Of a stretch of DNA of 64,000 bases, positions 48,917 to 54,092 are shown piece after piece. The notes beneath the pieces are model-generated. The model was not told the DNA's origin and ran no database searches. It saw only the letters and a program-made list of their open reading frames with translations. Source of the stretch: an uncultured delta proteobacterium. Lineage in GTDB: Bacteria > Myxococcota > Myxococcia > Myxococcales > Myxococcaceae. Location: positions 64,001-128,000 of the forward strand of contig CAWCKH010000004.1 of assembly GCA_963796055.1 (NCBI GenBank), written 5' to 3'. How positions within the stretch are numbered: the first letter of the stretch is position 1; every line of letters begins with the position of its first letter. A program made the position numbers and the translations under genes.

Positions 48917-51865
48917 TCAGTGCCGGACGCCGGCAGCGGGTGCGTGGGGAATCTCCGCCCAGTCTCCCTGGAGCACGAAGGCAGCCCAGGTGTACGGAGC
49001 GTCGAAGGGGCGCGTGCGGGCGAGCTTGCGTTGCGCCTGCCGGAGCGCCGCGGACGGACGCTGGCCTTCGACCAGCATCGCCCGGTAGAGCTCCTTCATC
49101 AGCTCGGCCGTCCCCTGGTCCGAGACCTTCCACAGGCTCGCCAGCACCTGCCGCGCCCCGGCGTGGATGAAGCCGCGGGTGAGGCCCACCATTCCCTCAC
49201 CCCGGATGCGCTTTCCCAGCGCCGTCTGGCAAGCGCTGAGGACCACCAGGTCAGCACCGATGTGCATGCCGTAGATGTCCTGGAGCCGGAGGAACCCGTT
49301 CTGTGGCTTCCCGGCCGGGTCGACCAGGGAGAGCACGAGACCCGAGAGCTCGGGGTGCTGGCTGTTCAGCAGCCCGTGGGTGGCGAAGTGGAGGATGCGG
49401 TACGCGCTCACCGAGGGGTCCATCGCCAGCGCCCGGCGGGCCTCGAACCCCGTCGCAGCGAGGCTCTGACCCCGGGGGGCGAGAGCGAGGATGCCCTCGG
49501 CGTCGAGACGTGTCCCCGGGAGCCGCACCAGCCGCTGCAGGCCCAGCTCGTCCATGGAACGCTGGAGGTCTGCCGGGACCAGCGCCGCCGCCAGGCCTGT
49601 CCTCGCCTGCAGACGCGGATCCCCCCGATCGAACACCGGATCTGCGAGCACCGCGACCGCGCCGGCATGCCGGTCGGCGTGCTCGGCTGCCCGCACTGCG
49701 GCCACGGCCGATGCCGAGGGCACGAGGATGACCTCGTGTTCCTCGACCAGCCGGCGCTGGGTCCGAGGCAGCACCAGCGCGGGAAAGGGCAGCTCGTGAA
49801 GGACACCATCGGCGGCGATTGCCAGGCGCTTGCCACGGATCCGCTCCAGCGCCGGCTCCAGCACCATCCTCCCCAGCCGCGAGGCCAGGCGCCGTTCGGC
49901 GGTCGGGTCCGACACGGGCGACTGCCAGAGCTGGGCGAGCCTGCGCGCCTCTCGCTCGATGCGCCCGCGCGCCGGGAGCACCCGGACGTCGATCGATCCG
50001 GGGGTCACGACGAAGAGGAAGCTCCGGTCGGTCCCCAGGAGGTACTGGAGCAGCACCGTGTCCCCGTCGAGCACCCGTGACTGCACCGCGGACAGGCGGA
50101 GAGGTTCGCCCCCTGCCAGCGCCGCGAGCCGCGGATTGCTCTGACGCATCCGGGCCCGGACGTCGTCGAGCTCGGTCATCACCCGCCGGAGCTCCGGGAC
50201 GTCGGTGGACACCCGGGCTCCCGCGGCTGTGCGCCGGGCCACATCCGCGGAGACACGCTCCGCTTCCTCCAGCAGCCGGCGCTCGCGGGCCACCAGCTCC
50301 GGGTCGGCGCCGCGCCTGATGTCCACCCGCGCCTCGAGTAGGAGATCGAGCAGACTCCGGGCCCGCGCCCGCTCGCTGATCCAGAACATCTCCGCCAGAC
50401 GGGCCGGATCGGGCGCGCGCTGCTGGAGGTCCCACAGCACCGAGACGAGCAGCTCGTAGCGGTCGCGGTTCCGGGCGGTCCAGTCGCTGCGCACGCTCCC
50501 ACCGGGGCGCAGGAGGCGGCCGGAGTCGGTGAGGTCCACCGCCTGGACCAGCGAGTCGCGGCTCTCCTCGAGGCGGCCGAGCGCGCGCTGCGCCTTTGCG
50601 AGATTCGTCAGCGAGACCGCCTGCTGGTTGGTGTCGGGCGCCTCCTGCGCCATCCGCAGCGCGGCACCGTGCAGCGTCACCGCCTCCTCCGGCCGGCCCT
50701 CCAGCTGCAAGATCTCCCCCAGCCCATCGTGGGTGATGGCGAGATTGACCCGGTCTCCGATCGGGGTGAGGAGCTCGATGGCCTCGCGGTAGGCGCGCTT
50801 GGCCTCGGCGAGCCGGTGCGTGTCTCCGTACACCCAGCCCAGATGGTAGAGCGAGACGGCCTGGTTCCGGCGGTCCCCCAGTGCCCGGTGCGCCTCCAGG
50901 GCCTGGCGGAACTGGCCCTCCGCCTCGGCGTATCGCTCGAGATCGTAGAGCACCACCCCGATGACGTCCTTGGTGGTGCCCCGGCGTTCCGGGCGCGGCT
51001 CGGTGCGCTCGGCCGCCCGCAGGAACTCGAGCGCCCGCTCCCACTGCTTGGAGGTCAGGTGGTTGAAGCCCAGGTTGTGGAGGATCATCGCCTTCAGCCC
51101 GGGGCGGGCCAGCGGCTCGGCCAGCTCGCGCGCACGTCGGAGGTCCTCCAGGGCCCCCACCGAGTTGGAGAGGCTGTCCCGGATCACCCCGCGGTCGTTG
51201 TACGCCAGGGCGAGCGCGCGCGGGTCGCCGAGCTGCTCGCGGAGCTCGATGGCACGGGTGATCGACGTCTCGGCACGCTCCAGCTCCCCCAGCTCCCAGA
51301 GGATGCTTGCCACCGTGGCGTGGACGTCGGACTCACCGCGCCCATCACCCGCCTGGCGCGCGAGCGCCGCGGCGCGCGCCTCCAAATCGACCGCCTCCCG
51401 GAGGGTGGGCTCCGCGTGCTCGGCCCAGAGCACCATGGCGCGCTGGTGCAGCCGCTCGGCCTGGATCCGCTTCTCGTCGAGCAGCGTGGGTGCGCGCGGC
51501 GGCTCGATGCGCACCACTGCCTCCCCGGCCGGCTCCGAGGAGGTGCCGAGGATGAGCTGACAGACTCCGGAACGGGTGGGCACCGCGGCCGCCGGGAGCT
51601 CCTCCGGCTCATCCGGGTCCAAGGAGTTTCGCACCTCGGCCAGGATCTCGCCGGATGGATCGCGCAGCTGGACGCGCACCGGCTGGAGATCCGGATCGAC
51701 GGTCGTCCGGAGGAGCACGCCGGCGGTGCAGGGGAGCTCGACGATGCTCGGCTCGCCGGCGGTGAGCTTCACCGTCCGTACCTCCGCGGGGGCTGGTGCC
51801 GGCGCCGCATCGGCGGCCAGCGCTGCGAGGAGGGCCGGGAGAAGGAGCGAGCAGCGCGAAGGCAA
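48917..51865 (-). CDS. Putatively exported TPR-CHAT (caspase-like, clan CD) protease
   Basis: TTG start then signal-like PSRCSLLLPALLAALAADA; beta-sandwich-like region; TPR array; ERARARSLLD; catalytic ILHFATHG and VVLSACQT; ASLWKVSD, WAAFVLQG. The frame stays open to ATG 52144, so the start is uncertain. Confidence 0.9.
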   Translation of the reverse strand: MPSRCSLLLPALLAALAADAAPAPAPAEVRTVKLTAGEPSIVELPCTAGVLLRTTVDPDLQPVRVQLRDPSGEILAEVRNSLDPDEPEELPAAAVPTRSGVCQLILGTSSEPAGEAVVRIEPPRAPTLLDEKRIQAERLHQRAMVLWAEHAEPTLREAVDLEARAAALARQAGDGRGESDVHATVASILWELGELERAETSITRAIELREQLGDPRALALAYNDRGVIRDSLSNSVGALEDLRRARELAEPLARPGLKAMILHNLGFNHLTSKQWERALEFLRAAERTEPRPERRGTTKDVIGVVLYDLERYAEAEGQFRQALEAHRALGDRRNQAVSLYHLGWVYGDTHRLAEAKRAYREAIELLTPIGDRVNLAITHDGLGEILQLEGRPEEAVTLHGAALRMAQEAPDTNQQAVSLTNLAKAQRALGRLEESRDSLVQAVDLTDSGRLLRPGGSVRSDWTARNRDRYELLVSVLWDLQQRAPDPARLAEMFWISERARARSLLDLLLEARVDIRRGADPELVARERRLLEEAERVSADVARRTAAGARVSTDVPELRRVMTELDDVRARMRQSNPRLAALAGGEPLRLSAVQSRVLDGDTVLLQYLLGTDRSFLFVVTPGSIDVRVLPARGRIEREARRLAQLWQSPVSDPTAERRLASRLGRMVLEPALERIRGKRLAIAADGVLHELPFPALVLPRTQRRLVEEHEVILVPSASAVAAVRAAEHADRHAGAVAVLADPVFDRGDPRLQARTGLAAALVPADLQRSMDELGLQRLVRLPGTRLDAEGILALAPRGQSLAATGFEARRALAMDPSVSAYRILHFATHGLLNSQHPELSGLVLSLVDPAGKPQNGFLRLQDIYGMHIGADLVVLSACQTALGKRIRGEGMVGLTRGFIHAGARQVLASLWKVSDQGTAELMKELYRAMLVEGQRPSAALRQAQRKLARTRPFDAPYTWAAFVLQGDWAEIPHAPAAGVRH

Positions 51866-51874
51866 CGGCCAGGG

Positions 51875-51905
51875 GCGGTGCGAACCCGAGAAGACCAAGG
51901 GCTCG
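51875..51905 (+). promoter_or_regulatory. Candidate ECF-type promoter, degenerate copy, for the hidden peptide gene
   Basis: GCGGTGCGA-N17-GCTCG; the 12-mer GGGGCGGTGCGA (51872-51883) is identical to 53588-53599. Confidence 0.5.
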
Positions 51906-51911
51906 ATCAGG

Positions 51912-52034
51912 GTGGTGGCGGTGATGTTCCTCGCGGTGTCCCTCGTCGGGCTGCTCTTGTCGTTCGCGGCCGCGACCTCGACCGCGGCGCAGGACTCACA
52001 GGACGTCTCGGTGGAGAGCATCCAGGGCACTTGA
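51912..52034 (+). CDS. Tiny putative secreted peptide (36-40 aa), antisense to the cassette
   Basis: (MVAV)MFLAVSLVGLLLSFAAATSTAA-QDSQDVSVESIQGT*; starts GTG 51912 or ATG 51924; promoter-like motif upstream and hairpin downstream. Confidence 0.55.
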   Translation: MVAVMFLAVSLVGLLLSFAAATSTAAQDSQDVSVESIQGT

Positions 52035-52081
52035 CCAGCGGTCCGAGGACCGGACACGCCACCCCCTGTCGACCCACTCCG

Positions 52082-52109
52082 GGAGGTCTCCTCGAAAGAG
52101 GGGACCTCC
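52082..52109 (+). terminator. 12-bp GAAA-tetraloop hairpin between the peptide stop and the anti-sigma stop
   Basis: GGAGGTCTCCTC-GAAA-GAGGGGACCTCC (one U-G pair). Confidence 0.6.
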
Positions 52110-52140
52110 TCGTCGTTGCTGGAGAAGGGGCTCGAGAGGC

Positions 52141-52953
52141 TCATCGCTGCGCAGCAGGAAGGGTCCGGAACTCGTGCGTGGAGACGGGCAGGCGCCGCCC
52201 GCTCCGGGCCTCACCCTCGAGCAGGAGGGTGTACCGGCCCGGGGGCAGCAGCGCGCCGTCGACGACCAGGAGGAGCGCCTCCCGCGTGGCAGGCATGAGC
52301 GCGTCCTCGAGGATGGTGGTGCCCTGCTGCGAGCGGACCGTCACCCGGTACCGCTCGAAGCGCGCCGGCAGCTCCCGCTCGATCCACAGCGCGACGGGCT
52401 GTCCGGGCGAAGGGAGGGTCAGGGTCGGCAGCTGGGCGCCCCGGGTGGTCAGCAGCGCGAGCACGGGCACCGGTGTCCCTCCGCTCGACCTCGGAGCCCC
52501 GACACCGGTCTTTGGCGCCCGCGTGGGGGCCTGTTCCAGCTGCGAGCGGGCGCGGGCGAGCTCCGCCTCGGTGCGGGCGAGCGCGTCCGTCTTCTCCGCC
52601 AGCCTCTGCTCCACCTTCCGGATGCGCAGGGAACTCGCCCAGAGCAGCCCGGCAAACGCCGCGGTCGCGGCCAGTCCCACCGCCAGGCGCATGCGGGTGG
52701 CCCTGCGAGGCGGCGCCCGTCGCTGCGCGCGGCGCGCCTCGGCGGCGGGCGTTCGCTGCTCGAGGGTCAAGAAGCCGTCCCGCATCCTCTCGGCGGACTC
52801 GACCCGGTCGAGGCACTCGGAGCAGCCCACCAGGTGAGCCTCGAACGACGGGCGCCGCTCCGCGGAGAGCTGTCCGGTGGCGTACTCCTCGGGCACACTC
52901 GTCTCGTGCCACTCCGACCCCTGTCCGCGACCGGCGTCCATCTCCCCAGTCAT
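52141..52953 (-). CDS. Zinc-finger (zf-HC2/ZAS) membrane anti-sigma factor
   Basis: FEAHLVGCSEC (HxxxCxxC), one TM helix (LAVGLAATAAFAGLLWA), coiled coil, C-terminal beta domain (RYRVTV...LPPGRYTLLL); coupled to the sigma gene. Confidence 0.85.
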   Translation of the reverse strand: MTGEMDAGRGQGSEWHETSVPEEYATGQLSAERRPSFEAHLVGCSECLDRVESAERMRDGFLTLEQRTPAAEARRAQRRAPPRRATRMRLAVGLAATAAFAGLLWASSLRIRKVEQRLAEKTDALARTEAELARARSQLEQAPTRAPKTGVGAPRSSGGTPVPVLALLTTRGAQLPTLTLPSPGQPVALWIERELPARFERYRVTVRSQQGTTILEDALMPATREALLLVVDGALLPPGRYTLLLEGEARSGRRLPVSTHEFRTLPAAQR

Positions 52954-53537
52954 GTGTGAGAACCCCCCGAATTATCGCTCCGCTCCCAGAGTGCCCGGAA
53001 CCGCTCGCGGGCGCGGTGGACGATGCGATTGAACTGGAGCCGATCGACCCCCAGCTCGGCGCAGAGCAGGTCCTTGTCCTCCTGGCCCAGGTAGAAACGC
53101 CGTAGCACTGCTCGGTCCCGCTCGGTGGGGAGCGCCTCGAGGACCTTCTCCACCCGCCGCGCGTCCTCCTCTCGCTCCAGCCGCTCGGTGGGGGATGGAT
53201 CCGGGGACTCCAGCCGGTCCAGTCCCGCGTCGTCCTCGGGCACCGAGCGGCGCGCCTTCCGGAAGTGCTCGATGGCCAGGTTGCGGGCGAGCCCCGCGAG
53301 AAACCCCCCGAGCTGCGAGGCATCCCGGAGCGCACCCGCGCGGATTCGCTCCAGCCCGATCCGGAAGGTCTCCTGGTGCAGGTCCTCCACCAGCGCCGCG
53401 TCACGCGCGATGTGCCGGAGGATGACCCGGATGCCGCGGCTGAAGGTGTGGACCAGCTCGGCCTCGGCAGAGCGGTCTCCGTCGCGGATGCGCTGGGCGA
53501 AGGTCGCGGCGGCTGCGGCAAGGTCCGTCACCTGCAT
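52950..53537 (-). CDS. ECF RNA polymerase sigma factor
   Basis: Region 2 EDLHQETF...FLAGLARNLAIEHFRK; region 4 LEALPTERDRAVLRRFY...HRARERFR. Confidence 0.92.
   Translation of the reverse strand: MQVTDLAAAAATFAQRIRDGDRSAEAELVHTFSRGIRVILRHIARDAALVEDLHQETFRIGLERIRAGALRDASQLGGFLAGLARNLAIEHFRKARRSVPEDDAGLDRLESPDPSPTERLEREEDARRVEKVLEALPTERDRAVLRRFYLGQEDKDLLCAELGVDRLQFNRIVHRARERFRALWERSDNSGGSHT
52953..52983 (-). promoter_or_regulatory. Candidate ECF promoter inside the sigma gene 3' end, facing the anti-sigma
   Basis: Minus strand GCGGAGCGA-N17-ACACA, same spacing as the copy at 53591. Confidence 0.55.
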
Positions 53538-53590: not shown

Positions 53591-53621
53591 GCGGTGCGAC
53601 TTCCAGCCCGGCCCCGACACA
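53591..53621 (+). promoter_or_regulatory. Candidate ECF promoter for the divergent peptide genes
   Basis: GCGGTGCGA-N17-ACACA, followed by AGGAG RBS (53645-53649) and ATG 53656. Confidence 0.6.
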
Positions 53622-53655: not shown

Positions 53656-53892
53656 ATGACTACCGCCGCCCGGAAGCACACGTTCCTCTTCCTCGTCGTC
53701 TTGTCTGCCCTGGCGGTGCTCTCGTCCGCCGGGAGTCGACAGGTCACCGCCCACGCCGCGGTCACCCCGGCCGTCGAGGGCAACCCGGACGGAGCCACGG
53801 CCGAGCGGCAGACGTTCCACATCGCGAGCGGGGACCAGGACGTCGGGCCGGGCGATGCCGAGCCCGCCCTCGCCCGGCACAGCTTCCAGTGA
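53656..53892 (+). CDS. Small secreted peptide precursor (78 aa)
   Basis: AGGAG RBS; Sec-type signal MTTAARKHTFLFLVVLSALAVLSSA...AHA; acidic unstructured mature part. Confidence 0.7.
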   Translation: MTTAARKHTFLFLVVLSALAVLSSAGSRQVTAHAAVTPAVEGNPDGATAERQTFHIASGDQDVGPGDAEPALARHSFQ

Positions 53893-54092
53893 ACGTGCGT
53901 GGGATGGCCAGGAAGTACCCGCTGCTCAGGGTCATCGTGCTCAACGTCCTCGCGGTGCTGACCTACGACACCGTCCGGCAGCCCTCGGCCCGCGCGGCCC
54001 TGCTCAGGGCGGCGCGCACGATGACCGCGGTCCAGTCCTCGGCCGGCGCCACGCGGGCGAGCGCGGGCGAGCTGCCGCTGGTGTCCCGGTGA
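53889..54092 (+). CDS. Small hypothetical membrane/secreted peptide (62-67 aa)
   Basis: GTG overlaps the upstream stop (GTGA), alternative ATG 53904; MARKYPLLRVIVLNVLAVLTY... Confidence 0.5.
   Translation: MNVRGMARKYPLLRVIVLNVLAVLTYDTVRQPSARAALLRAARTMTAVQSSAGATRASAGELPLVSR

Follow-up and report, generated by a model that had tools for sequence, protein, structure and literature searches.

Among the described systems closest to the locus studied here is DdvS/DdvA of Myxococcus xanthus, for which the available text of PMC11506125 proposes site-1 cleavage by CHAT, followed by release through site-2 cleavage by RseP. The same text presents DdvA as the one studied case of an extracytoplasmic TPR-CHAT protein, states that its trigger is unknown, and summarises the craspase CHAT as cleaving an anti-sigma-like target. 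The window analysed in this work (the whole stretch of 64,000 nt) shares with DdvS/DdvA, as far as that text describes it, a myxobacterial ECF sigma factor, a single-pass anti-sigma with a zinc finger, and a TPR-CHAT protein located outside the cytoplasm and bearing a His-Cys dyad, but it differs from DdvA in that its TPR-CHAT is a separate exported protein bearing an extra N-terminal beta domain, while the anti-sigma is unfused. The predicted promoter motifs differ as well: GTGCGAY-N17-CAC in the window versus the GTAA-N16-CGT pattern of DdvS (available part of PMC6061681). The DdvS promoters control a CBASS/CRISPR island, whereas the window-type regulon apparently comprises microproteins, the anti-sigma and the protease. 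No CBASS/CRISPR genes were noticed on inspection of the neighbourhoods of the window-type loci. We conclude that the window module resembles DdvS/DdvA in its proposed mode of action without belonging to that system.

AlgW is a serine protease of the HtrA/DegS type. In the DimA-AlgW-MucA-AlgU pathway of Pseudomonas aeruginosa, the C-terminal motif of DimA activates this periplasmic site-1 protease on the anti-sigma in a positive feedback, as stated in the accessible part of PMC12780092. Both systems, so far as that part goes, have an exported microprotein with a conserved C-terminal motif; the DimA system relies on AlgW, a WTF motif and control by AlgB, while in the window we find a caspase-like CHAT and a (V/I)QGx motif, and activation would be by inference. 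The RRNPPA pairs (PMC9765709) resemble our locus in that the gene for a short Sec/SPI propeptide, with the mature signal at its C-terminus, adjoins a gene for a TPR protein, and loss of the peptide gene has occurred there in some systems, termed “eavesdroppers”, according to the accessible text. The RRNPPA receptors are described in the same text as cytoplasmic proteins of Firmicutes, with an HTH or a 3-helix bundle and Opp import; the window TPR protein is, in contrast, an exported protease with a CHAT domain in a Gram-negative host. Since this TPR protein is exported, the window module is not an RRNPPA system.

The ECF54 context (PMC7826278) likewise brings an ECF sigma factor next to a TPR-CHAT protein, but the available description assigns ECF54 entirely (100%) to Actinobacteria and reports no putative anti-sigma, whereas the relatives here belong to Myxococcaceae and an anti-sigma follows the ECF gene; the ECF54 description thus sets the window ECF apart from that group. 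The craspase Csx29/Csx30/CASP-sigma (PMC10028731) is, in the part available, cytoplasmic and RNA-guided, while the window CHAT is exported. No exported microprotein is mentioned in the accessible portions of the ECF54 and craspase descriptions. As in the noncontiguous operons of PMC11034616 (as described in its available part), a gene of opposite direction lies inside a probable operon; among window-type loci this geometry is found in two of seven, where co-transcription across the gene is a prediction. The literature searched, most of it open access, held no description of the split module or of the microproteins reported below.

Results

Gene organisation of the locus

The locus lies on the minus strand and comprises the genes for a 195-aa ECF sigma factor (52950..53537; Sigma70_r2, with TIGR02937 above the cut-off), a single-pass anti-sigma of 270 aa (52141..52953; Pfam zf-HC2, E 4.6e-4; NCBIfam antisigma, E 2e-4) and an exported TPR-CHAT protease (48917..51865; Pfam CHAT, E 9.8e-63), the deposited call of which extends to 52144. 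An alignment of 12 anti-sigma proteins showed a zf-HC2 N-terminus, a TM helix, a coiled coil, a Pro-rich linker and a C-terminal extracytoplasmic domain; M50 site-2 proteases are encoded in the genome. The protease is built of a signal peptide, an N-terminal beta domain, a TPR array and the CHAT domain, where the motifs HFATHG and LSAC provide the His-Cys dyad. In 93 homologues, H795/H799 (P0032 numbering) are invariant and C848 nearly so. The structure model (pLDDT 89.9) has DdvA and Csx29 as its top structural matches. In the window and in all loci compared, the CHAT gene is separate from that of the anti-sigma and encodes its own signal peptide. On the plus strand, the neighbouring genes encode a 78-aa exported microprotein of the GPG family (53656..53892), with the C-terminal motif D-V-G-P-G-x-A-E-P, and a 62-aa paralogue without a clear C-terminal motif (53904..54092), which is absent at that site from G010, the closest genome (92% identity over the window stretch).

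An earlier note on this DNA had drawn attention to the CHAT frame being open up to ATG 52144, with 93 first codons that are S/T-rich and read like antisense text, and this description proved correct. The extension (51866..52144, minus strand), included in the deposited protein of 1075 aa, contains 29% S/T against 9% in the protein body. An equally open frame arose by chance in 42% of the 5000 null sequences examined (P≈0.42), and at least 100 open codons precede the aligned start at 8 of the 14 CHAT loci. Ten of the 14 closest CHAT homologues have a Met-led signal-like peptide directly at the start. G010 shares the open frame, which the net indels (−60, +3) preserve; codons differing between the window and G010 change the residue in the extension frame in 8 of 10 cases in the overlap and in 6 of 10 in the intergenic part. 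Its high GC3 (0.88) is borrowed, because its third codon positions are at the same time third positions of the plus-strand gene considered below. As judged from these comparisons, the extension is an antisense shadow frame and not protein.

The 5′ lesion in the window

Opposite the extension, the plus strand bears a 36-aa ORF running from ATG 51924–51926 to TGA 52032–52034 (51924..52034; MFLAVSLVGLLLSFAAATSTAAQDSQDVSVESIQGT), with an in-frame GTG upstream at 51912. This is the hidden peptide gene that the earlier note had proposed, and the gene caller did absorb it into CHAT, as had been expected: an exact look-up showed that the 36-aa sequence is absent from the protein collection. The ORF begins at an internal ATG, preceded by an SD-like stretch (anti-SD duplex −11.0 kcal/mol), and has no n-region. 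Comparison with relatives revealed it to be the residue of a real gene for a small exported protein, but in a broken copy: a 5′-truncated gene of a 45–48-aa exported microprotein, which has lost its start codon and retains codons 2 to stop at 51888..52034 (EKTKGSIRVVAVMFLAVSLVGLLLSFAAATSTAAQDSQDVSVESIQGT). The remnant is 89% identical to the intact 48-aa protein of G010, which begins MEKTKGSIRVV… and is identical to P0014, a hypothetical protein of a Myxococcaceae bacterium in the protein collection.

The lesion was located at the junction 51884..51887, where the window has 4 nt and G010 has 64 nt, a net loss of 60 nt. The X20 contig, which is independent of G010, also has 64 letters between 51883 and 51888, and the X8 piece starts at 51888, this being letter 78 of its own contig. 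The 64-nt stretch of G010 ends with AAGGAG, a 9-nt spacer and the ATG that opens the 48-aa protein (MEKTKGSIRVVVMFLAVSLVGLLLSFGAATSTAAQDPQDISVESDQGI). On the plus strand, the loss takes away the −10 box, the 5′ leader, the RBS and the ATG of the microprotein gene, and on the minus strand, the best SD and TTG for CHAT. It also explains why the basic n-region is missing. Deletion of one base after GTG 51878, proposed earlier as the correction of a possible 1-nt error, does yield xRTEKTKGSIRVVAV, but the relatives differ by 60 nt, so that a 1-nt error at 51884–51890 is rejected.

The near-identical short-read contig X2 has no differences over 51910–52069 and 52057–52245, which supports the ORF, the stop and the hairpin of the window; none of the pieces listed for the near-identical runs X1 and X2 crosses the junction 51884–51887. 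Over 112 kb aligned between G000, the window genome, and G010, the 1-nt indels number 72 against 67, and indels of at least 9 nt are common and balanced in both directions. Such symmetry argues for an assembly without deletion bias. We therefore regard the 60-nt loss as probably a true deletion, an assembly error being considerably less probable. Since the −10 box, RBS and ATG are gone, the window copy is predicted to be probably silent.

The deletion may impair CHAT as well, because its best SD and TTG lie in the lost stretch: in G010, the best CHAT start near the signal peptide is this TTG (SD −6.7 kcal/mol), while the window TTG 51865 has no SD (−3.2). A G-rich SD-like stretch (−10.3) precedes GTG 52057 in both the window and G010. 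Damage at the 5′ end affects two of the eight DNA copies of the microprotein gene, i.e., the window copy and the second copy of G006. In the CHAT homologues P0156/P0275, which are 81% identical to P0032, the first ~28 anti-sigma residues are joined straight to the CHAT signal region, which is probably another deletion spanning the anti-sigma and microprotein genes. Decay is frequent at the ECF/CHAT/microprotein loci.

The microprotein family

A profile search yielded 28 clusters from 104 candidates, for which 6 representatives suffice at an identity level of 50%. In a set of 208 genomes of the bacterial family, strong matches came only from G000 and from 4 of its 12 congeners. The plus-strand frame thus almost certainly belongs to a real gene family. 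Its members, of 44–49 aa, consist of a basic n-region, an h-region with the consensus F-L-G/A-V-S-L-V-G-L-L-L-S, small residues at candidate signal-peptidase sites and an acidic tail, and have no Cys; the n/h/c layout was judged by eye and charge, and the tail length (13–19 residues) by eye. In all 26 full-length matches with an n-region, the first nine residues are net positive, the tail is acidic and Cys is absent; P0029 is N-terminally partial. From this architecture we infer a Sec-type propeptide that would be cut by signal peptidase. In the intact copies, the start is well furnished, with an SD of −7.5 to −10.7 kcal/mol before the ATG in 5 of 5 tested.

The tail ends with (V/I)-Q-G-x, where Q occupies position −3 in 21 of 29 rows and G position −2 in 23 of 29, and the QG is kept in all three further distant members despite their differing tail lengths. 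The N-terminal part is nevertheless the better conserved. The mean identity over 21 sequences is 84% for the first 25 residues (N+TM) versus 63% for the tail, all the invariant and near-invariant columns fall within residues 1–24, and pN/pS, pooled from 6 copies, reaches 0.95 in the tail as against 0.41 in N+TM, the alignment between subgroups being uncertain. Signal peptides of the same CHAT clade have a mean identity of 61% (11 sequences). That N+TM is more conserved than both the tail and the CHAT signal peptides counts against a pure “leader plus pheromone” reading.

No match was found in Pfam for the in-frame 152-aa ORF containing the peptide, or in NCBIfam for P0014 and P0002, and the ESM Atlas gave leads under 0.9 only (the best, 0.87, to an unnamed cluster). 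When metagenomes were scanned using the 6-row alignment, 171 candidates yielded 3 loci, two of which show the peptide and layout of G010 and G006; the locus L067 was dropped as an unrelated signal peptide. Three weak genome matches inside frames of 474–1355 aa were discarded as chance; a match at L078 with E 0.34 was dropped as well. Profile comparison revealed no homology of the 45–48-aa family with the GPG family (probability 0.2%). The idea that the tail mimics the anti-sigma cleavage site was also abandoned: the linker showed no common motif or conserved Asp in the 12 sequences aligned (by eye).

A common motif, probably a promoter

Upstream of the microprotein gene and of unrelated small genes of the same loci we found the motif GTGCGAY-N17-CAC, mostly ~30–40 nt before the ATG. 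A matrix was built from 18 sites, which had been picked by the motif itself; the 17-nt spacer is fixed at all of them, across unrelated gene families. The motif precedes all six intact microprotein copies with upstream DNA available. Outside the training set, every one of 12 loci has a held-out match (scores 7.9–15.3) before the anti-sigma start, at the ECF 3′ end, with a genome background of 0.18 per kb at score 8. The motif sits there inside the ECF coding tail, so that protein constraint could help to conserve it. In the window, this site maps to 52952..52982 on the minus strand (score 15.3; outside the training set), and another precedes the GPG microprotein gene (53592..53621, plus strand; score 14.5). 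Before the microprotein remnant, only the left (−35-like) half, CGGTGCGA, is preserved (51876..51883, plus strand), the right half being gone; the remnant scores −8.1 versus 24.4 for the intact G010 site (leave-one-out). Neither the window nor G010 has the motif directly before CHAT, the nearest being the anti-sigma site.

In G140, a genome of another genus, the motif stands at three gene starts of an ECF locus, namely those of a GPG microprotein, the anti-sigma and CHAT. A motif-like site scoring 15.6 is present in G008 (92% complete), although the window ECF was not found there. Taken together, the distribution of the motif makes it probable that the ECF reads it. The sigma factor would accordingly transcribe its own anti-sigma and the genes of the microproteins, as well as that of the protease at most loci; besides anti-sigma and protease, the predicted regulon would thus contain between one and three exported microproteins.

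In other genomes, the motif was also seen before larger exported or lipoprotein-like genes close to ECF/CHAT loci (L017, −12697 and −10736; L092, −13595 and −10366), which we list as candidate regulon outputs.

Linkage to one CHAT clade

In a tree of 14 CHAT proteins, the microprotein gene or its remnant adjoins all seven members of one clade (SH-aLRT 100), and no homologue of it was found at the remaining 7 of the 14 CHAT loci. Five of the seven loci have the gene in convergent orientation next to the 3′ end of CHAT, with gaps of 9–13 nt in the four measured; in the window and G010, it lies between the anti-sigma and CHAT genes. In G012, it has been duplicated together with CHAT. The linkage in two geometries and the joint duplication indicate that the gene exists apart from the CHAT frame and travels with the protease. 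Its association with one CHAT clade is a single inherited event and not independent co-evolution, and the layout between anti-sigma and CHAT is derived and secondary. The antisense orientation to an anti-sigma-to-CHAT read-through, which had been suggested from the window alone, is indeed the geometry of the window and G010, but being derived and limited to 2 of 7 loci, with the other five convergent, it leaves no room for antisense control as the core function.

Two further loci, L076 (G006:C163) and L077 (G008:C79), keep only a GPG microprotein gene and a motif-like site at the same chromosomal position, between a 207-aa gene and a 253-aa membrane-protein gene, but no ECF/CHAT, which indicates that the cassette was gained or lost at that site.

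The hairpin and the 3′ flank

The GAAA-loop hairpin that had been noticed after the ORF is present (52081..52110, plus strand; loop at 52094–52097). Its stem has 13 bp including two G-U pairs, or 12 bp if it is ended at 52109, as originally written. It folds with −25.4 kcal/mol as plus-strand RNA but with −20.0 on the minus strand, where the two G-U pairs turn into mismatches; of 31,985 plus-strand slices of 30 nt taken across the window at step 2, one folds equally stably, and the 116-nt hairpin region has a folding z of −2.46. The hairpin belongs to a 53-nt block with no differences to G010, while 9 of 44 positions differ just upstream. It is probably the 3′ end or terminator of the microprotein transcript. 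Scans for a U-tract terminator at the hairpin and for sigma-70 promoters gave zero hits each, and Rfam had no match for the hairpin/peptide region. As a family-wide feature the hairpin was rejected, four intact convergent copies carrying other hairpins, which overlap the CHAT end. The segment 52111–52131 past the hairpin is also invariant between the window and G010; it contains a minus-strand GAGGAGG with no start codon behind it.

Discussion

The data point to a split variant of DdvA-like signalling that includes a microprotein, and to a so far undescribed peptide feedback on a protease-controlled gene switch. In the mechanism that we tentatively propose, and to which we would give slightly less than an even chance, the ECF sigma would induce the genes of the microprotein, the anti-sigma and, at most loci, the protease. 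The microprotein would be exported by Sec and then cut by signal peptidase, and its acidic tail of 13–19 residues with the (V/I)-Q-G-x end would bind the TPR groove of the cognate CHAT, by analogy with the action of DimA on AlgW (PMC12780092) and of RRNPPA propeptides on their TPR receptors (PMC9765709). The exported CHAT would serve as the site-1 protease of the anti-sigma, as is proposed for the fused DdvA in the available text of PMC11506125; tail binding would tune this cleavage, and subsequent site-2 cleavage of the RseP type would release the sigma factor, closing a feedback loop. Of the two possible effects of the tail on CHAT, activation seems slightly favoured over inhibition. In the window and G010, where the microprotein gene has moved between anti-sigma and CHAT, the latter would be reached by read-through across it, with the hairpin, favoured on the plus strand, ending the microprotein RNA and leaking on the minus strand. 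What counts against this feedback reading is that other microproteins with the sigma motif (the GPG family and genes of 55–89 aa) are encoded at the same loci, any of which could be the ligand.

A different part of the protein could be the active one. Through its membrane helix, left uncleaved, the microprotein might regulate the TM segment of the anti-sigma from within the inner membrane or act as a decoy for the site-2 protease, the tail being secondary. Such a role agrees with the confinement of the invariant and near-invariant columns to residues 1–24, with the lower pN/pS of N+TM relative to the tail (0.41 vs. 0.95), and with its conservation above that of the adjoining CHAT signal peptides. 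We still consider it rather unlikely, given that in 5 of 7 loci the gene has CHAT as its neighbour rather than the anti-sigma, that its duplication included CHAT, and that the protein has a classical n/h/c layout, small residues at candidate cut sites and a conserved C-terminal QG.

It is unlikely, too, that the microprotein has no part in the switch and is a mere output of the sigma regulon (e.g., an effector of envelope stress or cell contact) or a CHAT substrate. In favour of this, the same motif precedes microprotein genes of several families without relationship to each other and a number of larger genes for exported proteins, and 2 of 8 DNA copies are damaged at the 5′ end, which shows the gene to be dispensable; against it stands the strict link to one protease clade, maintained through rearrangement and duplication.

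An antisense or transcriptional-interference control of CHAT, as in a noncontiguous operon, is highly unlikely to be the main role at the window locus. The CHAT mRNA would cross an oppositely oriented gene there, the nearest motif being the anti-sigma site, and the hairpin is strand-biased and lies within the invariant 53-nt block, but this geometry holds for 2 of 7 loci only while the protein is under purifying selection in all, and in the window the plus-strand promoter is broken. Finally, translation of the CHAT extension from the ATGA overlap with the anti-sigma stop, i.e., dual coding that would give a membrane-anchored protease, is extremely improbable: the frame is kept open in the window and G010 by the net indels (−60, +3), ATG 52144 overlaps that stop, and with no SD (−3.2) at TTG 51865 it may serve by default in the window strain, but 42% of the nulls are open too, as are at least 100 codons upstream at 8 of 14 CHAT loci, the codon differences mostly change the residue (8/10 in the overlap, 6/10 intergenic), the high GC3 is borrowed from the plus-strand gene, and the ATG simply results from CGA-TGA, with which the anti-sigma terminates even in relatives that have no CHAT after it.

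Returning to the tail as a possible ligand of CHAT, a broader generalisation is conceivable but doubtful, namely a hormone-like extracytoplasmic circuit: sigma-induced exported microproteins, both of the 45–48-aa and the GPG families, might serve in a clade-specific manner as ligands for secreted, caspase-like receptor-proteases of the TPR-CHAT type, with a membrane anti-sigma as the substrate. If true, a periplasmic caspase would be reading a peptide signal for quorum sensing in Gram-negative bacteria, and DdvA-like CHAT switches would have the kind of trigger that has been missing for them. If the ligand reading is true, the window strain would be a mutant that has lost the signal naturally, either an eavesdropper or the carrier of a locus in decay. 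As a test system, the locus is small and fully specified: it has a sigma factor with a predicted promoter, an anti-sigma and a protease of its own, its candidate ligands are short and accessible to synthesis, and natural tail variants matched to protease subclades are available. For annotation, the lesson is that a broken gene lay concealed beneath a GC-rich shadow frame, through which the protease acquired a false N-terminus of 93 residues.

Related loci and further microprotein types

The wider GPG family comprises exported microproteins of 65–125 aa with the C-terminal A-D-x-D-(V/N/I)-G-P-G-x-x-E, encoded beside ECF/CHAT loci, in tandem pairs or alone, some of them near apparent sigma-54 activator or kinase genes (by eye). 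Matches, some of which arise by chance, occur in 17 of 301 genomes of the order; Pfam had no match for the window member, nor NCBIfam for three members. In G000, further members map to C4 near 1161601, 1163077, 3600894, 3602311 and 3653890, and other loci of the family are L016, L018, L019, L020 and L039-L065.

A second ECF/anti-sigma/TPR-CHAT locus is present at G000:C7:41630-46669 (L024), its ECF being 74–77% identical. The same motif precedes a 55-aa microprotein, the anti-sigma and CHAT there, which makes cross-talk with the window locus likely. A third type of microprotein (66–89 aa, MRHxLPFD...) is encoded between the anti-sigma and CHAT at L012 (4692-5214), L013 (1985-2185, 5540-5740), L014 (5615-5815) and L022 (5638-5880). 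In several of these loci, the promoter motif overlaps the anti-sigma stop (GTG CGA TGA), and the leader could pair with its own RBS. Two more CHAT genes of G000 (C4:2021227-2023920, L079, and C4:2922976-2926577, L078) have no homologue of the window ECF beside them, and each of them adjoins a small ORF of anti-sigma-like zinc-finger type (by eye).
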